This document shows positions 1,769 to 63,802 of a stretch of DNA of 64,000 bases, piece after piece. The stretch is from an uncultured Bacilli bacterium (GTDB taxonomy: Bacteria > Bacillota_I > Bacilli_A > RF39 > UBA660), in NCBI GenBank assembly GCA_947630575.1, contig CANRIB010000001.1, forward strand, positions 6,085 through 70,084. Reading direction: 5' to 3'. The notes under the pieces were generated by a model that saw nothing but the letters and a program-made list of their open reading frames with translations, had not been told where the DNA came from and did not search any database. The stretch's first letter is position 1. Each line of letters starts with the position of its first letter. The position numbers and the translations under genes are program-made.

Positions 1769-1952
1769 GGGTTAATCTACTACGTTTAGGATATTTTTGT
1801 TTGAAGACCATCTATTCTTTGTGAATACGAATGGCAACCTCAACAACACGAACGTGAACAACACGAACATCGGTGTGCGCCCAATATCCTAGGATAACTC
1901 ATATATTTGGTTAAGGCTTGGTATAGTAGAACTAGGATACAAGATTAATCCT
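1769..1952 (+). ncRNA. Template-repeat-like cassette RNA A (5' part of the template diverged or truncated)
   Basis: Starts GGTTAATCT and ends AGATTAATCC, which is complementary to the start. 1821-1883 is homologous to the 3' half of the variable tails (AAC-rich, ends GGTGTGCGCCCA). A conserved 3' domain follows. No RBS or ORF. Confidence 0.6.
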
Positions 1953-1973
1953 TAAGTGTTACTTTAAAAAAAT

Positions 1974-2022
1974 AAATACTGATATTATATGTCTTGTATA
2001 TATAATTAAAACAGTATTTTTT
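1974..2022 (+). terminator. Long AT-rich hairpin plus T-run after cassette A
   Basis: AAATACTG ... CAGTATTT stem followed by TTTTT. The same design follows all five cassettes. Confidence 0.55.
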
Positions 2023-2085
2023 ATTTGATATTTTATTATATTTAGTAAAGTATAATTTTTATGATATAATTAAATGGGTTAATCT

Positions 2086-2288
2086 TAGTTTATGGGGTTC
2101 TTTTTAGTCTCCGTATAACTTTTATAACAACGGGTCTAGTCAGTATGCTAACGTGTTCTTTGTGAATTCGAGTGGCAACCTCAACAACAACCCCGTGAAC
2201 AACACGTATGGTGTGCGCCAATATCCTAGGACAACTCATATACTTGATTAAGGTTTAGTATAGTAGACTTAGGATACAAGATTAATCC
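2086..2288 (+). ncRNA. Template-repeat-like cassette RNA B (long form)
   Basis: TGATATAAT extended -10 sits about 7 nt upstream of GGGTTAATCT. The template segment 2107-2220 begins GTCTCCG and ends GTGTGCGCCA, one C short of the consensus, so it is frame-broken and non-coding. Conserved tail ends AGATTAATCC. Confidence 0.65.
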
Positions 2289-2311
2289 TTAAGGATTTCC
2301 TTAGAATATTT

Positions 2312-2358
2312 AATGTTGATATTTTATATCTAGTATATAAAATTATTACAACATTTTT
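2312..2358 (+). terminator. Hairpin terminator after cassette B (may also serve the convergent XRE gene)
   Basis: AATGTTG ... CAACATT stem plus TTTTT. It abuts the stop of the minus-strand CDS at 2357. Confidence 0.5.
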
Positions 2359-2818
2359 ATTTTGTTTTTAAATATTTAGGAGTATTAGTTCGACCTAAGA
2401 GATAGTCGGCAGAGATGTTATATTTTTTGCAGATAGCATAAAGAAAAGAGGTTGTTATTAGTGTTTTGCCACTTTCATAGGCTGCAATAACAGAGTGAGT
2501 TGTATTAAGTAGTTCTGCTAAATTAACTTGAGTAAGTTTATTTTCTTTGCGAAAATTTTTTAATCTTTCACCGGCAATGATTTTGTTTATATCTTTTTTA
2601 ATATTTTTATAATTATTGATATTTGTAAAATTAAACATTTTATCAAAAGATAAATTATAATAATTGCATAATGTATTTAAATGTTTAATGGGTATAATTT
2701 GTAGTTCTTTTTCATATCTAGCATATAGACTATTGCTTATATTTAGAATTTTGGCAACTTGAATTTGCGATAGGCCAATTCTTTCGCGAATATTTATTAA
2801 ATTTTTTCCATAATCCAT
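2357..2818 (-). CDS. XRE-family transcriptional regulator with two helix-turn-helix domains
   Basis: Two repeats of the Cro/C1-type HTH pattern (LSQIQVAKILNISNSLYARYE and LTQVNLAELLNTTHSVIAAYE). Confidence 0.75.
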   Translation of the reverse strand: MDYGKNLINIRERIGLSQIQVAKILNISNSLYARYEKELQIIPIKHLNTLCNYYNLSFDKMFNFTNINNYKNIKKDINKIIAGERLKNFRKENKLTQVNLAELLNTTHSVIAAYESGKTLITTSFLYAICKKYNISADYLLGRTNTPKYLKTK

Positions 2819-2879
2819 TCTTTTATCACCTGCATAGATTTTCTCATACTTTTTATTTTTTATAGCATTTATTGAATAA

Positions 2880-2924
2880 AATACGACATTTCGTATTGAC
2901 TTTTAGTATATTGGATATTATAAT
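2880..2924 (+). promoter_or_regulatory. Near-consensus sigma-A promoter for the 2951 gene with an overlapping palindrome
   Basis: TTGACT (2896-2901), 17 nt, TATAAT (2919-2924). The palindrome AATACGA-N4-TCGTATT (2880-2897) overlaps the -35 box. Confidence 0.55.
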
Positions 2925-2950
2925 TTAAGTATAAGTTAGAAATTTCTAAT

Positions 2951-4384
2951 ATGATTGATAATAAGTCAATTATAAAGAAGGGAAGATTAATGAAAGTAGA
3001 GAGGTTAAGTAAAGGAAAAAGTAAGAGAATAATATTAGCTATAACAATAATAGTATTAGCAATAGGAATAATATATATAACAAATAGCAAAGCAAAATAT
3101 CAAGTAACCAAAAGTGTGCAAATAGTTAATGGTAATGTATCATATAGTCCATATGATTTTAAAATAATGGCTATGTATAAAAATGATGGAGGAGAAGATG
3201 CTCCCATAACAGAAATACCTGAAAATGGATATATGATAGACGAAACGAGGAGTTATTGTTTAAGAAATAATGAACAAATAAAGGGATTATTAAAAACAAT
3301 AAATGGCATTCACATCATATCTAAATTACATAGTAATGATAAATGTTATTTATGGTTTAATAAATCATTTACCGCTGAGGAACGAGTAACAGCTTTAGGC
3401 AAAACAACACAAACTGGCCAAATAAGTTTTGCAGAGTCAGATAAATCAGAACATAAAGATAGTAGTGACAATTCAATCATGTATAGTGGAACAGATAATG
3501 ATGGAATAACATATTACTTTAGAGGAGTAGTAAATGATAATTGGGTAAGATATGGAACTACAAGTGATAATAAAAGTATATGGTGGAGAATCGTTCGAAT
3601 AAATGGAGATGGCACAATAAGAATGATATATGCTGGAACAACAGATTTAAATTCAAATAATCCACCAGGAACAACAGGAACAGATACTCAAATAACAGTT
3701 GATGGAGAAAATACATTTCTTTATTCAAATTATGGATATGGAGATAATAAATATGTAGGCTATCAATATGCAGATAATAATGTACATGGAAAAGGAATAG
3801 ATAGCTATGCAGCAGATAGAGCAAATGAGTGGTTTAAAACAAATTTATTGGAAGAATGGAATAATGGCAATGGCAGAATAGATAATAATGCAGGATTTTG
3901 TGCAGATAGAACATCATATACAGATAATACAGGGACTTCCGAAGGAGGAGGAACCGGAACGACAACAACATATTATGCTGCTTATATAAGATTTCAAAAA
4001 GGGGGAAATTGGCAAAATCCGCAAAAACCAATATTCAAATGTACAAATACTAGTGATTTATTTACATATACAGGAGCAATAAATGGAACAAGGAGTTTAA
4101 CATATCCAGTAGGATTAATAACAGCAGATGAAGTAGTATATGCCGGAGGATTTGGAGGAAAAGATAATTATTCGTATTATTTATTTATAGGCAATGACTA
4201 TTGGACCATGTCTCCGTATTATTTTCGTGGTGCCTATGTTTACGTGTTCTATGTAAATCACAATGGCCAGCTCATTGGTAACCAAGTGAACTACAAGTAT
4301 GGTGTTCGCCCAGTAATAAATTTGAAGGCTGATACCCAATTTACAGGAAATGGAAAATCAGGAAGTCCATTTGTAGTACAATAA
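2951..4384 (+). CDS. Membrane-anchored surface protein, paralog T1, with C-terminal variable tail (alternative start ATG 2990)
   Basis: N-terminal TM segment. Central block YYFRG..NNWV..G....IWWRIVRINGDGTIRMIYAG is shared with the three paralogs. C-terminus reads GLITADEV.YAGG ... YWTMSP-[variable]-GVRPVINLKAD. Confidence 0.85.
   Translation: MIDNKSIIKKGRLMKVERLSKGKSKRIILAITIIVLAIGIIYITNSKAKYQVTKSVQIVNGNVSYSPYDFKIMAMYKNDGGEDAPITEIPENGYMIDETRSYCLRNNEQIKGLLKTINGIHIISKLHSNDKCYLWFNKSFTAEERVTALGKTTQTGQISFAESDKSEHKDSSDNSIMYSGTDNDGITYYFRGVVNDNWVRYGTTSDNKSIWWRIVRINGDGTIRMIYAGTTDLNSNNPPGTTGTDTQITVDGENTFLYSNYGYGDNKYVGYQYADNNVHGKGIDSYAADRANEWFKTNLLEEWNNGNGRIDNNAGFCADRTSYTDNTGTSEGGGTGTTTTYYAAYIRFQKGGNWQNPQKPIFKCTNTSDLFTYTGAINGTRSLTYPVGLITADEVVYAGGFGGKDNYSYYLFIGNDYWTMSPYYFRGAYVYVFYVNHNGQLIGNQVNYKYGVRPVINLKADTQFTGNGKSGSPFVVQ
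4208..4312 (+). other. Variable region VR1 (DGR-like) at the 3' end of T1
   Basis: ATGTCTCCG ... GGTGTTCGCCCA. A GC-rich island homologous to the cassettes. Encodes YYFRGAYVYVFYVNHNGQLIGNQVNYKY. Confidence 0.6.
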
Positions 4385-4480: not shown

Positions 4481-4759
4481 ATGTTTTTATGTCATAAAAT
4501 TGTATTGGTGAAGATTATGCATATGATTAAAAACTTGCAAAATTTTTTGTTAGACCAAGATTATTATATAGATATATTTAATAATTATATTCATGTTTAT
4601 TGTTATCAAGAATTAGTTACTTTGACAGATAAATTGATAGAATTAAAATTAAATGAGTTTGGTTTAGTTATTGAAGGAAGTAATCTTAGTGTTTCTAATA
4701 TGGATAATAAAGAAATATTAATTAAAGGTGTAGTTAATGATGTGAGGTTTGTTAGATGA
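4481..4759 (+). CDS. yqfC: YabP/YqfC-family sporulation protein
   Basis: Small protein immediately upstream of, and overlapping, a YqfD-like gene. Position matches the Bacillus yqfC-yqfD pair. Confidence 0.6.
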   Translation: MFLCHKIVLVKIMHMIKNLQNFLLDQDYYIDIFNNYIHVYCYQELVTLTDKLIELKLNEFGLVIEGSNLSVSNMDNKEILIKGVVNDVRFVR

Positions 4760-5943
4760 AGCATTATGTTAGGGGAAGAATTAAAACTAATAGTAGGACT
4801 AATTTACTTTTAAAATTAAATAGAATAAATGTGGATATTAGAAATATTAAGTATGAGAAAGATTATATATATTTTGATATATTGTCTAGTGATATTAAAA
4901 AGATTAAAAAATATTTGATTAGTTATAAATTTGAAGTAATAGATGAGTTAGGGATATATAAATTAAAAAAAGAATTAAGAGTTAATATGCTTTTTATTGT
5001 AAGTGTAGTTTTTGCTTGTGTAGTTTTTTTAATCTTGTCAAATATTATTGTTAAAGTTAATATTATCCATCAAAATAAAGATTTAAGAGAGCTTATAAAT
5101 GAAGATTTGAAAGAATATGGGGTAACTCCTATGAGTTTTAAAAAGAGTTATGATGCTTATGAAGAAATTATTTCAAAAATTAAAAATAAACATAAAGATA
5201 GAATAGAATGGTTAGAGATTGATGTTGATGGGATGGTTGTTAATATTAGGGTAGAAGAAAGAATTTTAAATGAAGAGAAAGAAGAAAAGGGTTATTGTCA
5301 TGTGGTGGCAAATACAAGTGGGATTATTACACATATATTGACAGCAAAAGGTGTAGCTTTGGTGGGAGTTAATGATTTTGTTAAAAAAGGGGATATTTTA
5401 ATTAGTGGAGAAGTTAAGTTAAATGAAGAAGTTAAAAATGATGTTTGTGCATCAGGTAGAGTGTATGCTGAAGTGTGGTATAATGTTAAAACTAGTTTGC
5501 CTTTAAATTATACATTAAAAGAAAAAACAGGGAAGATGCGCTACAACATAATGGTTAAAAATGATATGGGTGAATATGTTATTTTAAAATCAAGAGTTAA
5601 AGATAAAGAAGTTAAAAATAAATATTTAGTTAAGTTATTTGGTTATCAGGTTTATTTGCAAAAAGAATATGAAGTTATTCAATCTAATAAAAGATATACA
5701 GAAGAAGAAGCACTTAACAAAGCAATAAGTTTAGTTCATGAGAAATTAGCCGTTAAAGAAACGCAAACTCCTAAAATAATTAAAGAAAAAGTATTGCAAA
5801 AAAGTGTAAATAATGATACTTTAGATATAGAAATGTTTGTCGCAGTAGAAGAACAAATTGGGGTAGTAGAACCTTACACTAAAGAAATGGATAGTGATAC
5901 TAGTGATAGAACGGATAATGACAATAATAACTCAGTCAGTTGA
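4756..5943 (+). CDS. yqfD: Sporulation protein YqfD-like
   Basis: About 395 aa with one central TM segment. Sits upstream of the ybeY-dgkA-era block, as in Bacillus. Confidence 0.65.
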   Translation: MKHYVRGRIKTNSRTNLLLKLNRINVDIRNIKYEKDYIYFDILSSDIKKIKKYLISYKFEVIDELGIYKLKKELRVNMLFIVSVVFACVVFLILSNIIVKVNIIHQNKDLRELINEDLKEYGVTPMSFKKSYDAYEEIISKIKNKHKDRIEWLEIDVDGMVVNIRVEERILNEEKEEKGYCHVVANTSGIITHILTAKGVALVGVNDFVKKGDILISGEVKLNEEVKNDVCASGRVYAEVWYNVKTSLPLNYTLKEKTGKMRYNIMVKNDMGEYVILKSRVKDKEVKNKYLVKLFGYQVYLQKEYEVIQSNKRYTEEEALNKAISLVHEKLAVKETQTPKIIKEKVLQKSVNNDTLDIEMFVAVEEQIGVVEPYTKEMDSDTSDRTDNDNNNSVS

Positions 5944-15097: not shown

Positions 15098-17086
15098 ATG
15101 TTAAGTAAGAAAAGAACAGTAATTATTGTAGAAATAATAATGGTAATACTTGCTATATCAATATTTGGAACTTTTGCTTTTTTATCGACAAGTGGTAAAC
15201 AAGAATTGGCCAATACTTTTACAGCAGGTTGTTTAAGTATAACCATAGAAGAAGAGGGAAGAGCAATTGATTTAGAAAATAGATATCCAGTAACAGATAT
15301 AGAAGGATTAGAACAAGAGGGATATACTTTTAAAATAAAGAATAATTGTAGTAATGATACAAATTATCAAATAAATTTAGAATCATTAAGTGATCCAACA
15401 GCAGATACAACATTAAAAGCCGATTATGTAAGAGTATCCCTTTCAAGTGATACAATGGATAATTTAATAACAACATTAAAAGAAAATGATGTAGCAACAT
15501 ATCATTCAGAAAATGCTTATGTATCTTATAATCTTTATAGTGGAATATTAAAAGGAAGTGCAAGTAAATCATTTACTTTAAAAGAATGGGTAGAATATAA
15601 TACAACCAAAGAAGAAGGAGCAAGTAAAGAATATAAATCACAGATAAATGTTGTAAGTGATACAAGAGTAGAAGTAACCCCAACACCAGAAGTAAAGTTT
15701 ACTTATAGTGATAAAAAATATACAGGAGTATTAACAGAAGAAGCATCAAATGTTAAATATTGTATGACAACAGATAATAAATGTGATGCAAATAAAGATA
15801 TAGAAGTAAGCAATAAAGAAATAACAATAGAGGCAGAAGAAAATGATAATAAACAAATGATATGTACTGAAATAGAAAATAAAACATATTGTAGTAATCC
15901 TGAATTAATAGAAAAAGTAAAACTATGTCCAGAAGGTTGGGATGCTTGTGAAACAATATTAGCCAATAGTGAAATAAAAGGACCAGTTGGAACAATAACA
16001 GGGCCGAGTTGTAATGGAGCAGCAGGAGACTCATCGTGTTATAGCAGTGATACTAAAAAGAATAATATGGGACAGAATGGAGTTTATGATACAGTAGATG
16101 ATTATGGTAAGACATATGTGTTTCGGGGTTTTGTTCAAAATAACTGGTTAAAGTTTGGCAAAGAAAATGGACAAGATATATGGTGGAGAATCATCCGAAT
16201 AAATGGTAATGGAACAATAAGATTAATATATGCTGGAAAGGGTAGTGTTGCTCCAAGTACTAAGACTGCGGATACTCAAATTGGTACTAGTACTTATAAT
16301 ACAAATTATAATGATAATAAATATGTAGGATTTATGTTTGGAACAGCATCAAATGGTAGTGCAAGTAGTGAAGGAACAGCAGGTACTACAGATGGAGCAA
16401 GAAACGGAACCAAGCCAGCCCATTTAAACAAATATGATAGTACTATAAAGGATAAATTAGATGCTTGGTGGGTAACAACAAATTTAGGGGATACTGACCA
16501 AGTAAAACATATAGATATAGAAACAGGATTTTGTAATGATAGAGAACCAGTAAAGTCTGCACATGGTAGTTATGGAACTACTACATACGGAAAAACTCAA
16601 GCAGGATATGCTCCGGCAGATAGAGTATGGCAAAGTGGAAGTACAAGTTATGATTCAACACAAGAACCAACATTAAAATGTGGCGATGATACATCACGTC
16701 AATATGATTTATTTACAGGTACTGATGCAAAAGGAGTTATGGTTGATGGAAAAACAATAGCAGGAAATAATGAATTAACCAATCCAGTAGGCTTAATAAC
16801 AATGGATGAAGTAATATATGCTGGAGGATTCGCAGGTGCAAATAACAATAATTATTGGTTATATACAGGTCAAGATTATTGGACAATGTCTCCGCGTGGC
16901 TTTGGTGACTACTGTGCTTACGTGTTCTATGTGGATTCGTATGGCTACCTCCACTACGACCGCGTGAACGACGCGTTGGGTGTGCGCCCAGTAATAAATC
17001 TGGAAGCTGATACAGTAATTGATACATTAAAGGGAGTAGATTTGGCAAATGGAGGAACTACAGATAATCCATACATAGTCAAATGA
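15098..17086 (+). CDS. Secreted/surface protein, paralog T2, with SipW-type signal peptide and C-terminal variable tail
   Basis: The N-terminus K-K-R...FGTFAFLSTSG...NTFTAG resembles the TasA/camelysin-class signal. The C-terminal roughly 330 aa are near-identical to T4 except for the variable tail. Confidence 0.9.
   Translation: MLSKKRTVIIVEIIMVILAISIFGTFAFLSTSGKQELANTFTAGCLSITIEEEGRAIDLENRYPVTDIEGLEQEGYTFKIKNNCSNDTNYQINLESLSDPTADTTLKADYVRVSLSSDTMDNLITTLKENDVATYHSENAYVSYNLYSGILKGSASKSFTLKEWVEYNTTKEEGASKEYKSQINVVSDTRVEVTPTPEVKFTYSDKKYTGVLTEEASNVKYCMTTDNKCDANKDIEVSNKEITIEAEENDNKQMICTEIENKTYCSNPELIEKVKLCPEGWDACETILANSEIKGPVGTITGPSCNGAAGDSSCYSSDTKKNNMGQNGVYDTVDDYGKTYVFRGFVQNNWLKFGKENGQDIWWRIIRINGNGTIRLIYAGKGSVAPSTKTADTQIGTSTYNTNYNDNKYVGFMFGTASNGSASSEGTAGTTDGARNGTKPAHLNKYDSTIKDKLDAWWVTTNLGDTDQVKHIDIETGFCNDREPVKSAHGSYGTTTYGKTQAGYAPADRVWQSGSTSYDSTQEPTLKCGDDTSRQYDLFTGTDAKGVMVDGKTIAGNNELTNPVGLITMDEVIYAGGFAGANNNNYWLYTGQDYWTMSPRGFGDYCAYVFYVDSYGYLHYDRVNDALGVRPVINLEADTVIDTLKGVDLANGGTTDNPYIVK
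16886..16990 (+). other. Variable region VR2 (DGR-like)
   Basis: ATGTCTCCG ... GGTGTGCGCCCA. Encodes RGFGDYCAYVFYVDSYGYLHYDRVNDAL. The flanks are near-identical to those of VR4. Confidence 0.7.
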
Positions 17087-36975: not shown

Positions 36976-38415
36976 ATGAAAAGGATAATTTTAGTAATAG
37001 TAGGAATACTAGGTGTTTTTGGTGTAGTTTTATTGTTTGGAAGAGAAGAGAATAAAAGTGTTTATTTGACAAATAAAGAATTAAAAGAAAATAATTATAT
37101 AGCGGTTATGATAGAACAAGAAGATGGAAATTATCAGGAACAAGATAATATACCACAAACTGGGTATGCACTAAATGAAAGCAAAAGTACATGTAGTAAT
37201 GGAGCAAAACCAACATGGGTAGATAATAGATTAAAATTAAGTAATTTAACAAGTGACAATACAAGTTGTTTTTTGTATTTTGATAAAGGATTAGCAACAA
37301 AATTGGTTGATAGTTTAGGACTGACGACAAAAAAAGGACAAGATGGATTTACAGACATGGATACAGAAGAACATACAGATGAAAATGAGAAATCAATATT
37401 ATATAGTGATGAAGATGATTTAGGAACAACATATTATTTTAGAGGAAAAGTAAAAGACAATTGGGTAAAATTTGGCAAAGAAAATGGTCAAGATATATGG
37501 TGGAGAATCATTCGAATCAATGGCAATGGTTCAATAAGAATGATATATACAGGAACGGGAACAACTGCACCAACAACAGATGGATATTTAAATAATAATA
37601 CAACAAAAAGTCAGTTAAATAGTGGAAGTACAACAACTTTTAAATATAATGAATACTATAATGATAATAAATATGTAGGATATATGTATGGGACTCAGAA
37701 AACAGGTAGTGCTGGTAGTGAAACTACACCAACGACTAGTTATGCCCAAGCTCATGCAAATAATTATGATAGTGATATAAAAAAACAACTAGATACTTGG
37801 TATAGTACTAATTTAAAAAATGAATATGGACAATATATAGACCCAGATGCAGGATTTTGTAATGATAGAAAAACAGCAACAATGAGTAGAAGTGGGTATG
37901 GAACATTAGGATATGGAAAAAATGCAACGGCATATGCAGCAGGAGATAGATTACTAGATACAAGTTGGAATGCTAATACAAAACATACACCAACATTCAA
38001 GTGTAGTCAAACAGAAGATACATTCACACTTCCAGGAGCAAAAAAACCAGATGGAAGTTATTATGGAAATCATAAATTAAGAGCTAATAATGGGTCAGGT
38101 GATAATAGTCCAATAGGATTGATAACAATAGATGAGGCTGTATTTGCTGGAGGGTATTATTATAGATCAAGTAATCAATCTGACAATAAACAATTTTACT
38201 TATATACAGGCCAGAATTATTGGATAATGTCTCCGTCTTACTTTGACGGCAGCAATGCTAGCGTGTTCTATGTGAGTTACGATGGCCACCTCGGCGGCTA
38301 CAACTACGTGTGCAGCACGAATGGTGTGCGCCCAGTAATAAATCTGAAGGCTGATACAAAATTATCAGGAGATGGAACACACACTAATCCATATGTAGTA
38401 GAAGGAGCTAATTAA
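36976..38415 (+). CDS. Membrane-anchored surface protein, paralog T3, with C-terminal variable tail
   Basis: N-terminal TM segment, the shared central block (YYFRGKVKDNWVKFGKENGQDIWWRIIRINGNGSIRMIYTG), and C-terminal YWIMSP-[variable]-GVRPVINLKAD. Confidence 0.9.
   Translation: MKRIILVIVGILGVFGVVLLFGREENKSVYLTNKELKENNYIAVMIEQEDGNYQEQDNIPQTGYALNESKSTCSNGAKPTWVDNRLKLSNLTSDNTSCFLYFDKGLATKLVDSLGLTTKKGQDGFTDMDTEEHTDENEKSILYSDEDDLGTTYYFRGKVKDNWVKFGKENGQDIWWRIIRINGNGSIRMIYTGTGTTAPTTDGYLNNNTTKSQLNSGSTTTFKYNEYYNDNKYVGYMYGTQKTGSAGSETTPTTSYAQAHANNYDSDIKKQLDTWYSTNLKNEYGQYIDPDAGFCNDRKTATMSRSGYGTLGYGKNATAYAAGDRLLDTSWNANTKHTPTFKCSQTEDTFTLPGAKKPDGSYYGNHKLRANNGSGDNSPIGLITIDEAVFAGGYYYRSSNQSDNKQFYLYTGQNYWIMSPSYFDGSNASVFYVSYDGHLGGYNYVCSTNGVRPVINLKADTKLSGDGTHTNPYVVEGAN
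38227..38334 (+). other. Variable region VR3 (DGR-like)
   Basis: ATGTCTCCG ... GGTGTGCGCCCA. Encodes SYFDGSNASVFYVSYDGHLGGYNYVCSTN. Best local match is cassette D. Confidence 0.7.
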
Positions 38416-38416: not shown

Positions 38417-40432
38417 ATGAAAGATAAGAATAAAAGATTATATATATTAGTATCTATTCTATTAATAGGAGTAGGATTGACATTTGCATATTTTGTAGGA
38501 AAAACTATTTTTAAGGGAACAGGAGCAACAACAGAGGGAAGAACGGCAACCGTAAATGGTTCCACATTAGATATAAGTGGTAATATAGAGTTTGGTGATA
38601 AAGATATATATCCAGGACATCAAACATTATCCAAAGTAATAGCAACTGCAACAGGTAATAATGAACTTATCGCGTATAACTTAACATGGATAGGAACAAA
38701 TAATTTAAATACTAATTTAAAATATAAAGTATATGTATCAGAAGAAGAAAAAGAAATAAGTTTAACTTGTGAAAAGAAAAAGAAAGTAGTAAATGGAGCC
38801 CAACAATTAAATGAGGTATGTATAATAAATGGAGAATTAGGAGAACCAATAAATGAAGGAGAGATACCATCAAAACCAAAAGAAGAACAAACAATAAAGA
38901 TAACTAATACAGAATTTATAACATCAAAGAAAACAGGAACAATAAAATATTATTATATCATAGTAGAATATCCAGATAATGGAGATCAAAGTATAGATAT
39001 AGGAGAAGGATTTGAAGGAAAAGTATATGGAGAGATAAGTAATACAAAAGCCGATATAAATATAATAAGTGTAAATGTAGAGGGAGAAGATGGGAAATAT
39101 ACAAAACAAAGTGAAATACCAAAACAAGATAGTAATTTAACACTAAATACAAGTGATAGTCATTGTACAAATGATGCAACATTAGAATGGGATAATAGTG
39201 ATAGGAGTTTAATAGTAAATAATCTAACACAAAGTGGAACAGATTGTGAATTATATTTTTATGAGCCGACACCAGAAAAGACATTAAAAAAATTAGGAAT
39301 ATCAGAATCCGATGGAGTTATAACAGATATTACAGGTCCAAGTTGTAGTGGAAGTACTTCTTCGTCATGTTATAGTGGTGACTCTAGTCATAAAAATATG
39401 GCTCAAAATGGAATATATGATACAGTGGATGATTATGGAAAGAGCTATGTATATCGCGGTTTTGTTCAAAATAACTGGTTAAAGTTTGGCAAAGAAAATG
39501 GACAAGATATATGGTGGCGAATCATCCGAATAAATGGCAATGGAACAATAAGATTAATATATGCTGGAAAGGGTAGTACTGCTCCAAGTACTACGACTGC
39601 GGATACTCAAATTGGTACTAGTGCTTATAATACAAATTATAATGATAATAAATATGTAGGATTTATGTTTGGAACAGCATCAAATGGTAGTGCAAGTAGT
39701 GAAGGAACAGCAGGTACTACAGATGGAGCAAGAAACGGAACCAAGCCAGCCCATTTAAACAAATATGATAGTACTATAAAGGATAAATTAGATGCTTGGT
39801 GGGTAACAACAAATTTAGGGGATACTGACCAAGTAAAACATATAGATATAGAAACAGGATTTTGTAATGATAGAGAACCAGTAAAGTCTGCACATGGTAG
39901 TTATGGAACTACTACATACGGAAAAACTCAAGCAGGATATGCTCCGGCAGATAGAGTATGGCAAAGTGGAAGTACAAGTTATGATTCAACACAAGAACCA
40001 ACATTAAAATGTGGCGATGATACATCACGTCAATATGATTTATTTACAGGTACTGATGCAAAAGGAGTTATGGTTGATGGAAAAACAATAGCAGGAAATC
40101 ATGCATTAACCAATCCAGTAGGCTTAATAACAATGGATGAAGTAATTTATGCTGGAGGATTCGCAGGTGCAAATAACAATAATTATTGGTTATATACAGG
40201 TCAATATTATTGGACAATGTCTCCGTCTTGCTTTTATAACAGCGGGTCTAGTCAGTATGCTCGGGTGTTCATTGTGACTACGGATGGCAACCTCAACGAC
40301 CCGAACGTGAACAGCTCGAGCATCGGTGTGCGCCCAGTAATAAATCTGAAGGCTGATACAGTAATTGATACATTAAGGGGAGGAGATTTGGCAAATGGAG
40401 GAACTACAGATAATCCATACATAGTCAAATGA
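38417..40432 (+). CDS. Secreted/surface protein, paralog T4, with SipW-type signal peptide and C-terminal variable tail
   Basis: Starts 1 nt after the T3 stop. N-terminus ...GVGLTFAYFVGKT. C-terminal two-thirds are near-identical to T2 outside the variable tail. Confidence 0.9.
   Translation: MKDKNKRLYILVSILLIGVGLTFAYFVGKTIFKGTGATTEGRTATVNGSTLDISGNIEFGDKDIYPGHQTLSKVIATATGNNELIAYNLTWIGTNNLNTNLKYKVYVSEEEKEISLTCEKKKKVVNGAQQLNEVCIINGELGEPINEGEIPSKPKEEQTIKITNTEFITSKKTGTIKYYYIIVEYPDNGDQSIDIGEGFEGKVYGEISNTKADINIISVNVEGEDGKYTKQSEIPKQDSNLTLNTSDSHCTNDATLEWDNSDRSLIVNNLTQSGTDCELYFYEPTPEKTLKKLGISESDGVITDITGPSCSGSTSSSCYSGDSSHKNMAQNGIYDTVDDYGKSYVYRGFVQNNWLKFGKENGQDIWWRIIRINGNGTIRLIYAGKGSTAPSTTTADTQIGTSAYNTNYNDNKYVGFMFGTASNGSASSEGTAGTTDGARNGTKPAHLNKYDSTIKDKLDAWWVTTNLGDTDQVKHIDIETGFCNDREPVKSAHGSYGTTTYGKTQAGYAPADRVWQSGSTSYDSTQEPTLKCGDDTSRQYDLFTGTDAKGVMVDGKTIAGNHALTNPVGLITMDEVIYAGGFAGANNNNYWLYTGQYYWTMSPSCFYNSGSSQYARVFIVTTDGNLNDPNVNSSSIGVRPVINLKADTVIDTLRGGDLANGGTTDNPYIVK
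40217..40336 (+). other. Variable region VR4 (DGR-like, long form)
   Basis: ATGTCTCCG ... GGTGTGCGCCCA. Encodes SCFYNSGSSQYARVFIVTTDGNLNDPNVNSSSI. The 5' part matches cassette B and the 3' part matches cassette A. Confidence 0.75.
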
Positions 40433-41584: not shown

Positions 41585-43508
41585 TTTTAATTATTTTAAA
41601 GAGAATATAAGAAAATCTAAAGCAGTTTTGGCATTCTTTCTAGGAGTAATACCTTTACTTAATATTTTATTATTAATTATTGCCATAATTAATATGAATA
41701 ATACTCCAGTATTGCTTGATTTTCAATCTTTAAGTATAATTACTTTTTTGGGAATGTATGTTTTACCTATAATACTGGCTTTTAGTTTATTTGGATTTGT
41801 TTTTAAAAGAAAAAGTGTTGATTTTGTAATGTCTAAACCACTTAGTCGAAAAACAATTTATTTTACTAATATTTTAGGAGGTTTAATTGTCCTTTCCATC
41901 TTTATCCTCTTAAATACTCTTATTTACTTATTATTTAGTATTTTTGCACCTTTTGTAATTCCTTTTAGTTTAATAATTGATTATATGATTTTTTGGTTTG
42001 TATCTTACATATTTATGTTTACAGTAAGTGTCCTTGCTATGAGTATTTGTGGTAATTTAATTAGTACTATAGTAGTTATGTTTATTATTGTTTGTTTAGT
42101 TCCTTATTTAAATATGGTTGCAACGGTTTTTGATGGTTTAAATAGTAGTAATAATTATGTTAAATATAATGATGAAGATTTTAAGGGATCTTATTACTGT
42201 GAAACTGAAGATTGTGAAAAACATTTAGAAAATATGGAATATTCTTTATATTATAATGTTATGCCAAGTAAAAGTAATGTTGCTCCTTTAATATTTTTAA
42301 ATGATACTGATACTCTTATTTATAATTTAGGTAGTGTTATTAAAATGCTTATATTAAGTGTAATATATATATTTGTAGGATTTTATACTTTTAGTCATCG
42401 AAAAATGGAGAATAATGAAACTAGTTTTAAAAGTGAAAAAATGCATTATCTAGTTAAAATTATTACTTTACTTCCAGTATCTTTAATAACATATGCGATA
42501 ATTCATGAAGCAGCTTTAACTGGTTTACTTATAAGTTTAACAATTATATTTATTTATAGTATAGTGTATGATTTAATAACAAGAAAAGAAATATATAAGT
42601 TTGTTAAATCAACAATTATTTCTTTAGTATTTTTTGGTATATTCTCGGGTGGTTATGGTGTGTATCATCTATATCGTAGAGATAGAGTAATAGATATAGA
42701 GGATATTGATAAAATAACTTTTGAATATCCAGAGTATGATGACACTATTGATATTGTTGATAAAGAATTAATAACGGAAATTATGCATAATGCATTAAAA
42801 AAAGATAGTAGTTTATATAAAACTATAACTATAAGTTCTAATAATAAAAAATATAATAGTTATATATATATTAGAGATGAATTAAATTATGAAATAAAAG
42901 AATTAGTTAAAAATAAAAAAGAAAGTGAATTAAGTAAATTAAATAGTAAAGATATTATTTATACAGATGATATAGTGGTAGATAATAAATTAAAAGATTT
43001 AATTATCGAAACTGTTAATAAAGAAAATTTTCATTATATTGATCAAGAGGGAATAATTAATTTTTATGTTTATGATAATCATAATTATAAAGAATATAGT
43101 ATTGCTTCGGCAATGAACAGTAAGTTAGATGATTATGTGTTAGAAAAATTATCTAAGAAAGCAATAGATATTATTAAAGAGCAAAAAAATAAAAAACAAA
43201 TAGTAACTTTTGTTTATTTGGGAAATAATGGTGGATTAGATGAATTACAATCAAGATTATTTAATTATGTTATTAATCATAATTTAGATAGTTTCTTAAA
43301 ATATTTAGAAAGTAATAAAGAATATAAAGAATTTAAAACGAAAATTATGATTTATGATAATACTGGTGGTTTAGATCTTCCGATTGGTGATTCAGATAGT
43401 TTTAAAGAAGAGTTCTTACGTTATCAAGAAAAACTTAAAGATGATGAAAATTATCAAGAGTTAGTAGAAACTTATAAGAAAGAGATTCAGGATAGTAATG
43501 AATATTAA
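41562..43508 (+). CDS. Putative ABC-2-type permease with large C-terminal soluble region
   Basis: Multi-TM N-terminal half. Translationally coupled to the ATPase gene. Confidence 0.5.
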   Translation: MNLMKLFNFNYFKENIRKSKAVLAFFLGVIPLLNILLLIIAIINMNNTPVLLDFQSLSIITFLGMYVLPIILAFSLFGFVFKRKSVDFVMSKPLSRKTIYFTNILGGLIVLSIFILLNTLIYLLFSIFAPFVIPFSLIIDYMIFWFVSYIFMFTVSVLAMSICGNLISTIVVMFIIVCLVPYLNMVATVFDGLNSSNNYVKYNDEDFKGSYYCETEDCEKHLENMEYSLYYNVMPSKSNVAPLIFLNDTDTLIYNLGSVIKMLILSVIYIFVGFYTFSHRKMENNETSFKSEKMHYLVKIITLLPVSLITYAIIHEAALTGLLISLTIIFIYSIVYDLITRKEIYKFVKSTIISLVFFGIFSGGYGVYHLYRRDRVIDIEDIDKITFEYPEYDDTIDIVDKELITEIMHNALKKDSSLYKTITISSNNKKYNSYIYIRDELNYEIKELVKNKKESELSKLNSKDIIYTDDIVVDNKLKDLIIETVNKENFHYIDQEGIINFYVYDNHNYKEYSIASAMNSKLDDYVLEKLSKKAIDIIKEQKNKKQIVTFVYLGNNGGLDELQSRLFNYVINHNLDSFLKYLESNKEYKEFKTKIMIYDNTGGLDLPIGDSDSFKEEFLRYQEKLKDDENYQELVETYKKEIQDSNEY

Positions 43509-46741: not shown

Positions 46742-46946
46742 TTTTTTCCTCCTTCTCTAGAGATTTTTATACCTCTATCTTTAATATGTAAATATTTGAC
46801 ATATTTATACATAAAAATACAAAAATAGACAAGAAATTTAAATGATTTATAAATTATATATGTATATACGCAGATAGAAATTTATGAAAGATGTGGTTTA
46901 TAAAATAAGTGCTTAAAAAATAATAAATTAATGATATAATTATAAT

Positions 46947-47149
46947 GGTTAATCTGTTTAAGTGTATTGGTATTAGTCTTTGTATAACGCTGACTCTGAT
47001 GGTTATGCTCGCGTGTTCATTGTGAATTCGACTGGCAACCTCAACACCAACAACGTGAACAACACGTGGGGTGTGCGCCCAATATCCTTTTTAAAACTCA
47101 TATATCTGGTTAAGGCTTGGTATAGTAGAACTAGGATACAAGATTAATC
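46947..47149 (+). ncRNA. Template-repeat-like cassette RNA C
   Basis: TGATATAATTATAAT precedes GGTTAATCT. The template segment 46976-47081 starts GTCTTTG instead of GTCTCCG and ends GGTGTGCGCCCA. Conserved tail ends AGATTAATC. Confidence 0.65.
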
Positions 47150-47174
47150 ATTGGTTTTAGGACTTAAAAAAAAT

Positions 47175-47220
47175 AATGCTGATATTATTTATCTTGAATA
47201 AGTAATTATTACAGCATTTT
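47175..47220 (+). terminator. Hairpin terminator after cassette C
   Basis: AATGCTG ... CAGCATT stem plus TTTT. Confidence 0.55.
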
Positions 47221-47279
47221 TATTTTGGAAGTAATACTTCATTGACCAAAAAATGGCTATTTTGTTATATTGACCCTAA

Positions 47280-61549: not shown

Positions 61550-61678
61550 TTGACAAATAGGGTATTTTTTGCTAGAATTATATACGCGAAGTATTTTATA
61601 TTCGTAAAAAACCACTCAGAAATGGTCTTTAAAATAAGAAATTATTACCATGATGGTGCGTCTTAAAAAGAAGGAGGA
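61550..61678 (+). promoter_or_regulatory. Promoter plus structured leader of the rplU-prp-rpmA operon (candidate L21 leader)
   Basis: TTGACA (61550-61555), 17 nt, TAGAAT (61573-61578). About 100 nt of leader with hairpins (CGCGAAG..., ACCACTCAGAAATGGT). Confidence 0.45.
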
Positions 61679-61981: not shown

Positions 61982-61983
61982 TT

Positions 61984-62280
61984 ATGATTAAAGTAAATAT
62001 TAATAAAGATAAAATTATTATTACAGGGCATGCTGGTTATGCAGATTATGGCAAAGATATTGTTTGTGCAAGTGTATCTAGTATTGTTATTACAAGTATT
62101 AATGCGGCTTTAAGAATTGATAATAAGTTTTTAACTTATGAAGAAAAGGATAACTTAACAATAAATATTTTAGGTAATAATAAAGATTGTTTATTAATAA
62201 TAGAAAATATGATAGCAATGCTAAAGGAATTAGCATTAACTTATAAAGAAAATATTAAAATAAAGGAGGAAAGACCATGA
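61984..62280 (+). CDS. prp: Ribosomal-processing cysteine protease Prp
   Basis: GHAGYA...DIVCASVS motif. Lies between rplU and rpmA. Confidence 0.85.
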
Positions 62281-62561
62281 ATTTTATGAAGTTAAATATC
62301 CAATTATTTGCGCACGTTAAGGCTCAAGGTTCTACTCAAAATGGTAGAGATTCAAGAGGACGTAGATTAGGAGCCAAAGCTAGTGATGGAGAAACTGTTA
62401 GCGCAGGAGCTATTCTATATCGTCAAAGAGGAACAAAAATTTATCCTGGTACTAATGTAGGTATGGGGAAAGATCATACTTTATTTGCAAAAATAAGTGG
62501 TGTTGTTAAATTTGAAAGATTAGGTAGAGATAAAAAGAAAGTAAGCGTTTACGAAGCATAG
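62277..62561 (+). CDS. rpmA: 50S ribosomal protein L27 with cleavable N-terminal extension
   Basis: ...NIQLFAH then [13 protein letters not shown] pattern. Confidence 0.95.
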
Positions 62562-62588
62562 TAAATGCTTTTTTAAAGGAGTTTTGGG

Positions 62589-63191
62589 ATGGATATTATT
62601 TTAAATGGGGATTTATATGTTAAGTTAACTAATGAAGTAGTTTATGTTTTAGAAGAAAATGATAAAACAAAAGCAATTATTAAAGATATTATGGGTGATG
62701 TTAAAGATAATGAGGAAGAATTATTAGCTTTAGCAAGTTTTAAATTTGCCCAAATTATGGATAAACTTATAGAAGAACAATTACTTTATAAGGAAGAAGA
62801 AAGTCTAGATAAAAATGGCTTTTATAAAATATTTTATACGGGTAATGAAGTAATCATGATGAGTGATGAAGAAAATATAAAATATAATTCTTTAGAAGAA
62901 GTAAATAAAAAATATATTAATTTAAGAGATTTTTTAATAAGAGCAACTTTAGTTGGAAGATATTTAGAACCAATTAAAGATAATCTGCCAAGATATGCGG
63001 TAATTTATGAATATGAAGATTGCTTATTATTACATAATTTAAATAATGGGATGTTTACTACTGTAAATGCTAAATCAAGTATTTTAAATAATTATTTTTT
63101 AGGGGATAATCTAATAGAAGAATATAAAAAAGAAGATGTATATCAAACTATAGTTAATCAAGAATTAAAAAAGGGTAAGTCAAGAAATTAA
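62589..63191 (+). CDS. Hypothetical protein
   Basis: ORF with RBS AAGGAG. No motifs. Confidence 0.5.
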   Translation: MDIILNGDLYVKLTNEVVYVLEENDKTKAIIKDIMGDVKDNEEELLALASFKFAQIMDKLIEEQLLYKEEESLDKNGFYKIFYTGNEVIMMSDEENIKYNSLEEVNKKYINLRDFLIRATLVGRYLEPIKDNLPRYAVIYEYEDCLLLHNLNNGMFTTVNAKSSILNNYFLGDNLIEEYKKEDVYQTIVNQELKKGKSRN

Positions 63192-63238
63192 TATTTATAA
63201 TTGTTTTATTAAGATTATTGATATATAATTATAATAGA

Positions 63239-63432
63239 GGTTAATCTATTATCTCGTGACATGTCTCCGTATAACTTTAACGGCAGCAATGCTAACGTGT
63301 TCTATGTGAATTCGAATGGCAACCTCGGCAACAACAACGTGAACAACACGAATGGTGTGCGCCCAATATCCTTGAATACCTCATATATCTGGTTAAGGCT
63401 TGGTATAGTAGAACTAGGATACAAGATTAATC
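63239..63432 (+). ncRNA. Template-repeat-like cassette RNA D
   Basis: -10 boxes (TATATAATTATAAT) precede GGTTAATCT. In the template segment 63261-63365, 13 of 35 codons are AAC/AAT in the target frame. Conserved tail ends AGATTAATC. Confidence 0.7.
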
Positions 63433-63455
63433 TTTAGTAGTTTACTAAAATAAAT

Positions 63456-63505
63456 GATGCTGATATTATTTATCTTGAATAAGTAATTATTACAGCATCT
63501 TTTTT
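63456..63505 (+). terminator. Hairpin terminator after cassette D
   Basis: GATGCTG ... CAGCATC stem plus TTTTTT. Confidence 0.6.
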
Positions 63506-63534
63506 GATGGTAGTAAGTGTGATATAATTATAAT

Positions 63535-63729
63535 GGTTAATCTATTTTGGTTAGTTAGTCTCCGCGTAACTTTGATGGCAGCAATGCTAACGTGTTCTAT
63601 GTGTCTTCGGATGGCTACCTCAACAACAACACCGTGAACAACACGAGTAATGGTGTGCGCCCAATATCCTAAAGAAACTCATATACTTGATTAAGGTTTA
63701 GTATAGTAGGCTAGGATACAAGATTAATC
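63535..63729 (+). ncRNA. Template-repeat-like cassette RNA E
   Basis: GTGATATAATTATAAT precedes GGTTAATCT. Template segment is 63558-63663. Conserved tail ends AGATTAATC. Confidence 0.7.
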
Positions 63730-63754
63730 ATTAGTTTAAAAACTTAAAAAATAT

Positions 63755-63802
63755 AGTATTGATATTATATGTCTTAGTATATATAATTATAACAATATTT
63801 TT
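63755..63802 (+). terminator. Hairpin terminator after cassette E
   Basis: AGTATTG ... CAATATT stem (one G-U pair) plus TTTTT. Confidence 0.5.

Follow-up and report, generated by a model that had tools for sequence, protein, structure and literature searches.

Five intergenic cassettes and four related gene tails

The window analyzed here is a 64-kb stretch of a 101-kb source contig. It contains five cassettes of ∼190 nt, all intergenic, and four genes whose tails were found by BLAST and alignment to be homologous to the cassette cores (Table 1). The motif GGTTAATCT occurs exactly five times in the window, always on the plus strand and always at the first position of a cassette, while shuffled sequences gave an expectation of 0.9 copies and reached five in 0 of 100 trials. 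All five cassettes have the same order of parts, which consists of a leader, a GC-rich segment, ATATCC, a tail, a small hairpin, and a long hairpin with a T-run. The GC-rich segment ends in GGTGTGCGCC(C)A immediately before ATATCC, and the conserved tail of ∼60 nt ends in AGATTAATC. An earlier sequence-only reading of this DNA had described five units with one architecture, which is borne out, and its coordinates stand for all units but one, as it had placed the start of cassette B at 2086, 9 nt too far to the right.

Table 1. Positions of cassettes, target-family genes, and a recurrent neighboring gene in the window
Feature	Position	Strand	Details
Cassette A	1770..1950	+	RNA core from GGTTAATCT to AGATTAATC
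Cassette A TR	∼1813-1886	+	TR 5′-truncated
Cassette A hairpin and T-run	to ∼2027	+	
Cassette B	2077..2287	+	TR ∼2107-2221; terminator to ∼2365
Cassette B extended −10	2062-2070	+	TGATATAAT
Double-HTH (XRE-type) gene	2357..2818	−	HTH_3 twice; between cassettes A/B and V1
V1	ORF 2951..4384	+	VR-like segment 4207-4315; N-terminal TM helix, DUF6273 C-terminus
V2	ORF 15098..17086	+	VR 16886-16993
V3	ORF 36976..38415	+	VR 38227-38337, residues ∼418-454; C-terminal end of DUF6273 match
V4	ORF 38417..40432	+	VR 40219-40339
Cassette C	46947..47149	+	TR ∼46971-47084; terminator to ∼47226
Cassette C extended −10	46932-46940	+	TGATATAAT
Cassette D	63239..63432	+	TR 63261-63368; terminator to ∼63506; best template for VR3
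Cassette E	63535..63729	+	TR 63558-63666; terminator to ∼63806; best single template for VR2
Cassette E extended −10	63520-63528	+	TGATATAAT

The extended −10 elements that had been reported for cassettes B, C, and E are present, and cassette D has a TATAAT without the TG. For cassette A, which begins 8 nt past the stop codon of the ORF at 643-1761, an own promoter was looked for and none was recognizable. The claim of multiple, non-identical, and individually promoted and terminated templates amid housekeeping genes therefore holds overall with the exception of this one promoter. Because a simple promoter/terminator scan was uninformative in DNA with 26.5% GC, a positional analysis over 168 cassettes was used instead. 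TAWAAT was found at −12 to −14 in 103 of these cassettes and a T-run followed 159 of them. An Rfam search of the window returned only a tRNA at gathering score, and cassettes D and E gave nothing relevant at E ≤ 1.

The GC-rich segments are AAY-rich and noncoding, as is the invariant template repeat (TR) of a diversity-generating retroelement (DGR). When the TR of cassette D is read in the target frame, 13 of its ∼37 codons are AAC or AAT, which agrees with the Asn-codon richness noted before. The individual TRs have distinguishing features. The truncation of the cassette A TR recurs in the ortholog in locus L038, and cassette B has lost one C from its GC-rich 3′ end and carries a 12-nt insertion that, among the gene tails of the window, is common to the variable region (VR) of V4 only. 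Cassette C has no good target among the gene tails of the window.

Variable regions at the C-terminus of DUF6273 proteins

In three of the four genes, the 45 to 65 residues that directly precede the tail are covered by matches to DUF6273, which exceed the gathering score in V1 and V3. On the DUF6273 profile, the VR occupies positions ∼110 to 171 of 172. DUF6273 has been described as C-type-lectin-like and as a domain targeted by DGRs, in which the VR is C-terminal (PMC11792537, PMC10743442). The VRs of the window thus fall in a C-terminal target domain of the C-type-lectin type, in keeping with DGRs, whose VR lies in the ligand-binding face of such a domain. An AF2 model of a target (pLDDT 89.7) had a single PDB match, to a structure that includes the N-terminal DUF6273 domain of the IgA peptidase from T. 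ramosa. A direct fold match of this model to Mtd or TvpA was not obtained, and a sequence profile of the target family had no match in the PDB. Target recognition by DGRs involves a GC-rich IMH at the 3′ end of the VR and a DNA hairpin shortly after it. The GC-rich sequence GGTGTGCGCCCA is common to all TRs and VRs. A conserved hairpin directly after the VRs was not found, and the only inverted repeats are those around the stop codons.

The paralogs V2 and V4 provide a sharp view of the variable region. These genes are identical at 710 of 720 positions upstream of the VR and at 56 to 60 of 60 positions downstream (98.6% outside the VR), whereas only 74 of 120 positions (62%) are identical inside it, and the indels match cassette-specific indels. 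The variable island of V2 is sharply bounded relative to V4: the VR is 38% divergent, and the adjoining flank is identical without exception over 480 nt. VR4 itself is a mosaic that resembles B in its 5′ half, with the 12-nt insertion, and A in its 3′ half, with an extra 3 nt. V4 is closer to the ortholog of cassette B in a sister species than to its own cassette B.

Among same-strain consensus contigs from other samples, the V1 and V4 VRs were identical, a comparison of low power in which contigs often break inside the targets. In contig L108, a V2-type VR is joined to the V4 downstream flank; this may be an assembly chimera formed via the shared 3′ end.

Mismatches between templates and variable regions concentrate at adenines

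Mismatches were tabulated by template base over pooled best same-genome TR/VR pairs. The mismatch rate was 43.6% at A, as compared to 18% at C, 19% at G, and 10% at T (p = 7e-47). At columns with at least 80% TR agreement, the VRs keep C, G, and T at 90 to 96% and A at only 58.5%. The sequence-only reading had taken the cassettes for template-like RNAs with adenine-biased mismatches, and the pooled values uphold it, with added support from covariation, TR conservation, and the bounded islands. The same pattern is seen among V3 orthologs, which differ at 17 of 34 columns with A in the TR versus 11 of 74 other columns (p = 2.6e-4).

The quality of the fit differs from pair to pair. The closest fits are those of L072/L066 (115 nt with mismatches at 9 A and 1 T), L020/L047 (17 A and 3 others), and V3/D (12 A and 2 others); V3 differs from D at 12 to 13 A, 1 C, and 1 G, in addition to a 3-nt indel. 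For the 3′ half of VR4, the best match is cassette A, from which it differs at 9 A and 1 T in 74 nt. V2 has 21 A mismatches to D and 16 to E, with 7 non-A mismatches for each. Most TR/VR pairs are imperfect, with several non-A mismatches or indels. Relative to the 75% share of A mismatches that is typical of DGRs, V3/D and V4/A lie above and V1/D, V2/E, and V4/B lie below. In V1, the non-A mismatches to every cassette of the window at least equal those at A (13 A versus 17 others), and 19 non-A mismatches separate it from the best TR; this gene fits no template among the five cassettes of the window, its status as a current target is unsupported, and some VRs elsewhere likewise fit no sampled template. 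Hence the four variable-tail genes claimed earlier do have homologous tails, while the adenine-biased relation extends to three of them. As in DGRs, the differences between TR and VR are concentrated at adenines, although the fit is imperfect and V1 fails.

A conserved RNA fold in the cassettes

An alignment of 100 cassettes supports three helices by covariation, namely P1, a closing duplex of the 5′ and 3′ ends; P2, a UAUCCU/AGGAUA duplex; and P3, a stem-loop inside P2. Of the helix cells, 93.6% are paired, versus ∼38% when the partners are slid. Changes on both sides occur in 20 of 25 pairs (193 cells), and 0 of 500 shuffles matched the observed values. The closing stem alternates between the types GGUUAAUCU/AGAUUAAUC and GGAAUAUCU/AGAUAUUUC. 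In the window, the TR/VR homology ends between CGCCCA and ATATCC, which is exactly the edge of P2.

The RNA of the Bordetella phage DGR contains a TR:Sp template:primer duplex and, adjacent to it, a second duplex in which sequence from upstream of the TR pairs with sequence from downstream of it; a stem-loop follows the TR (bioRxiv 10.1101/2023.10.23.563531). The predicted P1/P2/P3 layout matches these cis elements of BPP-1 by position and topology, not by sequence homology, and in this sense the cassettes carry the cis elements of a DGR RNA (P2, P1, and P3). This topology recurs in RT-linked TR units of other low-GC gut contigs, which adjoin MutS_I-bAvd-RT operons or reverse transcriptases (RTs) from that family.

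These features bear on whether the cassettes could be silent donors for DNA-level gene conversion of the pilS/pilE or vls type, with no reverse transcription. Many non-identical donor copies, some in tandem arrays beside a target, VRs that are mosaics of several donors, and indels that move together with donor sequence would all be expected of such donors. Recombination does not, however, explain why mismatches concentrate at donor adenines, why the cassettes are rich in Asn codons, or why the homology ends exactly at an RNA helix, and a DNA donor needs no conserved promoter, terminator, or G-U-tolerant, compensated RNA fold. We consider this explanation very unlikely.

Distribution of the cassettes among gut genomes

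An 18-mer from the cassette tail recovered 95 loci. The occurrence of the cassette RNA in related genomes was confirmed by nhmmer, which found 173 full-length cassettes in 31 gut MAG species and 23 VR-type partial matches inside ORFs. The cassette-bearing MAGs are labeled Bacilli, ‘Mycoplasma’, or Tenericutes. Single genomes contain up to 19 or more cassettes, and one has a tandem array of ∼15. The A/B and D/E positions are syntenic between species. The TR of cassette D is identical at 107 of 108 positions between two species whose flanking DNA is 89.9% identical (genomes ∼90%), and cassette D as a whole differs from its L044 ortholog at 8 positions over ∼190 aligned nt. When the cassette tail and the TR/P2 junction were compared with viral contigs and GenBank phages, there were chance matches or none, which argues that the element is not phage-borne.

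The double-HTH gene between cassettes A/B and V1 belongs to a family of 20 ORFs in 18 loci and is a recurrent neighbor of cassettes and targets in other genomes. It is possibly a regulator, and its membership in the system is uncertain.

Small units with their own promoters and terminators, complementary termini, and many copies could also be regulatory sRNAs or mobile miniature elements with terminal inverted repeats, for which the likeness to gene tails would be incidental or serve RNA-RNA regulation. The antisense-sRNA version was rejected since the cassettes have the polarity of the target mRNA and therefore cannot pair with it. The transposon or MITE version was rejected on account of the syntenic positions, which speak against mobility, and of terminal repeats that tolerate G-U pairs and so act in RNA. 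Neither version explains the adenine bias, and we regard this alternative as extremely improbable.

Search for a reverse transcriptase and Avd

A YxDD motif scan of the 64-kb window found no RT. With BPP-1 Brt, BPP-1 Avd, and two low-GC DGR RTs (Roux 2021 supplement) as queries, phmmer and tblastn were then run against every ORF of at least 80 aa in the window and the 95 cassette-flanking loci (∼0.7 Mb, genetic codes 11 and 4), and neither RT nor Avd was found. The phmmer search with BPP-1 Avd had no match in the window or loci; Avd proteins are divergent. The nearest low-GC RT family (t111) was sampled in 80 metagenome loci, none of which had a window-type cassette, the TRs being of other types throughout. 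The single TR beside an RT that defines the canonical architecture is thus absent: there are 5 TRs in the window and 173 in 31 genomes, none of them beside an RT. The ‘system’ named by the sequence-only reading is therefore incomplete as observed, in that its template/target signature stands and its RT and Avd are missing from the window and the 95 loci.

Four RT matches came from the same rabbit-gut MAG project, in assemblies outside the 31 cassette genomes, and the sampled RT-bearing MAGs are only distantly related to the organism of the window (UppS 40% identical). Other low-GC rabbit-gut MAGs do contain RT operons with no TR or target nearby. Two of these, L200 and L201 of the MutS_I-bAvd-RT family, lack a TR or target in the flanking 6 kb on both sides, which indicates that unlinking of RT and TR occurs in that RT family.

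One reading of this result is that an ancestral DGR diversified the genes and the RT was lost later, leaving cassettes and VRs that are now static. The search result fits this scenario, as do the many imperfect TR/VR pairs, the C missing from the GC-rich end of cassette B, the closeness of V4 to the sister-species B ortholog, and the VRs that are identical across samples. Against it, compensatory changes keep the three helices intact across 31 species, the 108-nt TR of D has changed at only 1 position although the divergence of its flanks predicts ∼11, and AAY-rich content, promoters, and terminators are retained in >150 copies. The 480-nt identical flank beside the divergent VR of V2/V4 additionally points to recent rewriting. 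We judge this relic scenario to be unlikely.

Proposed pathway of diversification

The DGR interpretation of cassettes and VRs is well supported by the cassette family, the helices, the adenine bias, the TR conservation, the V2/V4 island, and the DUF6273 target, with the partner RT and Avd not found in the window or in ∼0.7 Mb around cassettes of other genomes. The cassettes are quite probably genes for complete, self-contained DGR RNAs that act with an RT and Avd encoded elsewhere to rewrite DUF6273 VRs, and at least three membrane-anchored proteins appear to have their tips rewritten from these templates. By analogy with known DGRs, we infer that the cassettes are transcribed, that a partner RT exists in the genome and is of the DGR clade, that priming takes place at the site given below, and that the pathway is active at present.

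The cassette RNA would consist, in order, of an upstream strand, the TR, and a spacer-like tail. Transcription would start from a sigma-70-type promoter at or near the GG of GGTTAATCT and end at the intrinsic terminator. The 5′ end of the RNA would pair with the end of the tail to form P1, and the 6 to 7 nt directly 3′ of the TR would pair with the tail to form P2, with the P3 stem-loop inside. A DGR-clade RT and Avd, encoded elsewhere in the genome, would bind this RNA, and cDNA synthesis would be primed from the tail at the edge of P2. The RT would copy the TR with misincorporation opposite adenines, and the cDNA would replace the homologous VR at the C-terminus of the C-type-lectin-like DUF6273 domain of the membrane-anchored proteins.

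Since the genome has many non-identical TRs, one VR could be rewritten from different templates, either wholly or in its 3′ part only, which would change scaffold residues and loop lengths beyond the Asn-coded positions. We tentatively propose that one RT/Avd complex serves a library of dozens of autonomous template RNAs, some of them arrayed in tandem with closing stems of alternating type, such that cassette switching is layered on adenine hypermutation in a two-tier diversification; this extension is plausible and falls somewhat short of probable.

A lineage-wide family of free-standing template RNAs, if true, would mean that the template module can be uncoupled, multiplied, and arrayed, and the accessible sequence space would extend well past the adenines. 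Current views of DGR activity and of target repertoires would then fall short for low-GC gut Bacilli and Mollicutes-like bacteria, and two-tier diversification would be invisible to RT-centered DGR surveys. The >170 covarying copies of a ∼190-nt minimal DGR RNA are a resource for defining the RNA elements that an RT/Avd complex requires, which bears on the engineering of DGRs for directed evolution. The targets are membrane-anchored, and their fold resembles the N-terminal DUF6273 domain of an IgA peptidase from the gut, which hints at recognition of host or phage ligands.

Comparison with known systems

We regard the system as a variant DGR architecture, putatively active, in which autonomous template-RNA genes are present in many copies and are not linked to the RT. 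Small structured RNAs that combine template and primer are also found in retrons, in which the msr-msd RNA has paired 5′ and 3′ ends (a1/a2) and primes a dedicated RT via a 2′-OH. The cassettes share the paired ends and the small, structured form. Retron RNA, however, lies beside its RT, has no homology to host genes, and undergoes no adenine-specific mutagenesis, and its cDNA starts at the closing stem and not at an internal duplex. A retron reading was rejected on the grounds that no RT is adjacent and that the middle of the cassettes has homologs in the four gene tails.

In silent-cassette systems (Neisseria pilS/pilE, Borrelia vls, Mycoplasma genitalium MgPar), a library of partial copies likewise donates segments to expressed surface genes and produces mosaics. 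The donors in those systems differ in that they are untranscribed DNA acting by recombination, with no base-specific mutagenesis and no conserved RNA fold.

Closer parallels exist in the MutS_I-bAvd-RT DGRs of low-GC gut Firmicutes (t111, CAZG010000040.1; DGR clade 4, Roux et al. 2021; L110, L152, L203). These have a low-GC gut host, a small TR unit that is transcribed separately and in some cases lies on the other strand than the RT, and a TR topology of 5′/3′ closing stem, TR, duplex, hairpin(s), and A-rich linker. They differ in TR and tail sequences, in the VR type, which is GFRxVL rather than GVRPVINL, and in having a single TR per RT.

With canonical DGRs (BPP-1; Legionella, Treponema; architectures A-E, Wu et al. 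2018, PMC5758913), the cassettes and their targets share a noncoding, AAY-rich TR and a VR that is placed C-terminally in a ligand-binding domain of the C-type-lectin-like kind. In both, TR and VR differ with a bias toward adenines and have a GC-rich 3′ end in common, and the RNA cis elements comprise a template:primer duplex, a stem-loop, and a duplex of upstream with downstream sequence. Treponema already provides examples of remote targets, and TR and RT can sit on different strands. Known DGRs nonetheless have one TR directly beside the RT, an arrangement that RT-centered detection pipelines assume. In our literature search, no report of multi-TR or arrayed DGR templates was found, and the ‘multiple TRs’ mentioned for Treponema refer to different strains. 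The window differs from these systems in containing at least five TR genes in 64 kb, none within several kb of an RT, in that nearly all cassettes have their own promoter and terminator, except for the promoter of cassette A, and in templates that vary at non-A positions and in length, with VRs that resemble mosaics of more than one template.

Cassette architecture and target genes

All five occurrences of GGTTAATCT in the window lie on the plus strand, compared with 0.9 expected from shuffles, and each of the five ~190-nt cassettes (A to E) follows the same order. This consists of a 5′ GGTTAATCT, a variable leader, a GC-rich segment ending in GGTGTGCGCC(C)A, ATATCC, a conserved tail of ~60 nt that ends in AGATTAATC, a small hairpin, and a long hairpin with a T-run. 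Inspection of the sequence and an alignment of the five units with four gene tails thus bore out the shared layout that had been described from the sequence alone. That reading also spoke of four paralogous genes with cassette-homologous tails, and a BLAST search of the units against the window returned the other four units and the 3′ ends of four ORFs (V1 to V4). We refer to the homologous segments as the template repeat (TR) in the cassette and the variable region (VR) in the gene. The window has a GC content of 26.5%, and the rest of it carries housekeeping and sporulation genes, including those for YqfD, Era, PBPs, L21/L27, MreC, and EF-P.

Coordinates of cassette, target, and neighboring features
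Feature	Position	Strand	Remark
GGTTAATCT	1770, 2077, 46947, 63239, 63535	+	
Conserved 3′ regions of cassettes	1951-2027, 2288-2365, 47150-47226, 63433-63506, 63730-63806		conserved across genomes
VR1	4207-4315		ORF 2951-4384 (V1); BLAST match, ORF 3′ end
VR2	16886-16993		ORF 15098-17086 (V2); BLAST match, ORF 3′ end
VR3	38227-38337		ORF 36976-38415 (V3); BLAST match, ORF 3′ end
VR4	40219-40339		ORF 38417-40432 (V4); BLAST match, ORF 3′ end
Double XRE-type HTH protein	2357-2818	-	153 aa
Two large ORFs and TraG/VirD4-like gene	29080-31785, 33733-36099, 41562-43508	-, +, +	
TR end of cassette B	2215-2232		one C missing
P1	alignment columns 1-9 with 261-269		5′ end with 3′ end
P2	alignment columns 198-204 with 253-258		UAUCCU just 3′ of TR with AGGAUA
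P3	alignment columns 214-226 with 235-245		hairpin within P2

Several neighboring features were recorded. The HTH protein is encoded between cassettes A/B and V1, and its homologs recur beside cassettes or targets (20 ORFs in 18 loci), so that a role in regulating the cassette/target system is possible. The TraG/VirD4-like coupling-protein gene is placed between the tRNA/uppS region and V3/V4 and may be the remnant of a conjugative element. Neither of the two large ORFs (901 and 648 aa) has a Pfam match.

A hydrophobic helix at the N terminus and a large extracytoplasmic part are common to all four target proteins, which belong to a family of 5071 proteins at E ≤ 1e-10. Three of the four match Pfam DUF6273 at the C-terminal end, with the VR at profile positions ~110 to 171 of 172. 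DUF6273 is described as C-type-lectin-like and is a target of diversity-generating retroelements (DGRs) in crAss-like and Faecalibacterium phages, where the VR is likewise at the C terminus (PMC10743442, PMC11792537). An AlphaFold model of V3 (m045d6f563dc3, pLDDT 89.7) gave a single significant PDB match, to the IgA peptidase of Thomasclavelia ramosa (9qa6); DUF6273 forms the N-terminal domain of this peptidase.

The cassette family in other genomes

Among species-representative genomes, the 18-mer TAGGATACAAGATTAATC retrieved 95 stretches, which come almost entirely from gut MAGs (rabbit, mouse, human, and chicken) labeled as uncultured Bacilli, Mycoplasma sp. CAG:776, Tenericutes, or similar. 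The sequence-only reading had suggested that the cassette RNA be sought in related genomes, and an HMM built from 96 copies indeed found 173 full-length cassettes in 31 genomes, with up to 19 in one genome when sampled 8-kb blocks alone are counted. The same HMM gave 23 partial matches, which cover the TR part only and are located inside ORFs. The closest relative of the window, Lapin-028__bin40 (~90% identical), carries cassettes where the window has A/B and D/E, which indicates that they are stably inherited rather than mobile. Cassette-bearing assemblies include CANRBQ01 (closest relative), CANQHE01, CANRPK01, CAJUCD01, JAMPHW01, CARJCM01, and Mycoplasma sp. CAG:776.

A tandem array was found in a mouse-gut MAG (L074:549-4964, minus strand), where ~15 cassettes stand head to tail, each with its own TATAAT box and terminator, beside the VR of a target gene (L074:45-153). 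The closing stems in this array alternate between GGTTAATCT/AGATTAATC and GGAATATCT/AGATATTTC, plus one GGTTAACCT/AGGTTAATC; possibly the alternation avoids mispairing of neighboring transcripts or serves two RNPs. In variant cassettes from other genomes (L033:3763-3980, L071:2243-2463, L067:7011-7225 and 4681-4888), an additional GC-rich hairpin, e.g., CCTGTTAGGCGCTTGACAGG, breaks up or takes the place of the last ~20 nt of the TR (…GGTGTGCGCCC). In addition, a ~338-aa protein recurs near cassettes (17 ORFs in 12 loci, e.g., L060:140-1087). Judged by eye it is a putative DUF1016/YhcG-like nuclease, which may act as an accessory factor or simply belong to a mobile gene. A DUF1016_N fragment also lies ~1.5 kb past the right end of the window (L100:12860-13075), just past the neighborhood of cassette E.

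RNA structure and transcription signals

RNAalifold and an explicit pair count over 100 cassettes support three helices, P1, P2, and P3. Within these helices, 93.6% of cells are paired, compared with 32 to 40% when the partners are slid, both-sided changes occur at 20 of the 25 pairs (193 cells), and none of 500 shuffles reached the observed pairing values. G-U pairs are tolerated, and therefore the constraint acts on RNA. The dinucleotide CA between the P2 and P1 strands is invariant. No Rfam family matched the cassette.

A TAWAAT box lies at -12 to -14 from the first G in 103 of 168 cassettes, and 159 of the 168 have a T-run after the long hairpin; a generic promoter/terminator scanner was uninformative in such AT-rich DNA. 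Discrete cassette transcripts would start at GGUUAAUCU. In the 3′ region, the small hairpin is followed by an A-rich stretch, the long hairpin, and the T-run, and the long hairpin has a fixed internal loop (..CTGATRTT...ATTAYxACAG..). The role of this region may go beyond termination; possibly it corresponds to the "stem-loop followed by adenosines" portion of the stop element reported in DGR RNAs.

Adenine-biased differences between templates and variable regions

The pairwise comparisons within the window are dominated by mismatches at template adenines for V3 (VR3 versus D, 13 A and 2 other, plus a 3-nt indel), V4 (VR4 versus A, 9 and 1 over 74 nt; versus B, 14 and 8), and V2 (VR2 versus D, 21 and 7; versus E, 16 and 7). 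For VR1 versus D the counts are 13 and 17, and an adenine wildcard explains this VR no better than any other base. The proposed DGR-like relation to the five window templates thus stands for V2, V3, and V4 and fails for V1.

When the best same-genome TR was taken for each of 23 VRs, the pooled mismatch frequency was 43.6% at A, 18% at C, 19% at G, and 10% at T (Fisher p = 7e-47). At columns with ≥80% agreement among the 173 TRs, the VRs keep C/G/T at 90 to 96% and A at 58.5%. Near-clean pairs are L072/L066 (9 A and 1 T mismatches over 115 nt) and L020/L047 (17 A and 3 other).

In the sister species, TR D matches the window copy at 107 of 108 positions, whereas flanking DNA is 89.9% identical, a divergence at which ~11 changes are expected. 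Between the V3 orthologs, differences fall at 17 of the 34 TR-A columns and at 11 of the remaining 74 (p = 2.6e-4). The main rival explanation, that the cassette system is an inactive relic, is opposed by this strong purifying selection on template sequence and by that on the RNA fold. Same-strain contigs from other samples are 99.98 to 100% identical to the window, including cassettes A and B, VR1, and VR4, although these are clonal consensus assemblies with little power for heterogeneity; further contigs break inside target genes.

The clearest single result for template-directed change comes from the paralogs V2 and V4. These are identical at 710 of 720 nt before the VR, including 480 consecutive alignment columns without a difference, and at 56 to 60 of 60 after it, but at only 74 of 120 inside it, with two indels that coincide with cassette-specific indels. 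In another sample, a tail upstream of the ABC-transporter gene (L108:678-968), i.e., at the V4 position, carries a V2-type VR. Either this contig is chimeric, having been assembled through the near-identical V2/V4 3′ ends, or the two paralogs did exchange sequence.

By its sequence, VR4 is a mosaic of B-like and A-like halves: the 5′ half carries the 12-nt insertion of cassette B, and the 3′ half has an extra 3 nt found only in A and E and matches A in sequence. Allowing one to two template switches lowered the non-A mismatches from 7 to 0 (L020), 7 to 1 (L039), and 14 to 3 (window V4). However, random template sets also improve once switches are allowed, so mosaicism of VRs from several templates is suggestive rather than proven. 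Cassette B itself lacks one C at the GC-rich TR end (GGTGTGCGCC-AATATCC), as do cassettes in L031, L079, L095, and L086, and at three non-A positions VR4 is closer to the sister-species ortholog of B (L038) than to the window's own B; cassette B may be decaying or may have mutated after the last rewriting of VR4.

Search for a reverse transcriptase

No reverse transcriptase (RT) or Avd, the protein partners of a DGR, was detected in the window, which is 64 kb of a 101-kb source contig, or in the 95 cassette loci (~0.7 Mb). This unseen RT is the main weakness of the DGR reading. Two low-GC Firmicute DGR RT sequences were taken from the Roux 2021 supplement, and one of them, t111, an RT of the MutS_I-bAvd-RT operon type, defines a family of 4976 members at E ≤ 1e-30. 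Window-type cassettes were present in 0 of 80 metagenome loci of this family, which have other TR types. MutS_I-bAvd-RT operons were found among housekeeping genes in two rabbit-gut MAGs (L200:5206-7095, CANRPR01; L201:5254-7065, CANRAM01), and neither a TR nor a target lies within 6 kb of them in either direction. Unlinking of RT and TR therefore exists in the t111 family, and these must be "orphan" DGR RT operons with templates elsewhere. Since their UppS is only 40% identical to that of the window organism, the two MAGs are only distantly related to it.

Comparison with known DGR RNAs

The spacer of the Bordetella phage DGR RNP pairs in two neighboring duplexes. In one it is joined to the TR 3′ end as the template:primer duplex, with priming from Sp A56, and in the other it pairs with sequence that lies upstream of the TR. 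Of 278 DGRs, 207 are predicted to have an upstream:downstream duplex (mean 13 bp) together with a stem-loop immediately 3′ of the TR (bioRxiv 10.1101/2023.10.23.563531). The cassette has the same order as the Bordetella RNA, namely P1 strand, TR, P2 strand, P3, P2 strand, CA, and P1 strand, and from this topology, not from sequence homology, we infer that the cassette helices correspond to these DGR RNA elements. The aligned TR/VR homology ends at CGCCCA|ATATCC, the P2 edge, as predicted by priming from the P2 duplex, and the priming nucleotide would be the A of the invariant CA or the P2-terminal A. TR units linked to MutS_I-bAvd-RT in low-GC gut contigs (L110 and L152) are closed by a like 5′/3′ stem, and in L110 a duplex directly follows the TR as in the cassette, although sequence and VR type differ.

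The best explanation for the cassettes is that each is an autonomous gene for a complete DGR RNA, which a putative, unlinked RT would use in trans. Such a system is not categorically new, as every mechanistic element has a DGR counterpart. What is new is the presence of many non-identical templates per genome, predicted to be individually transcribed and either scattered or in arrays; there is evidence that VRs of a single family are written from different templates.
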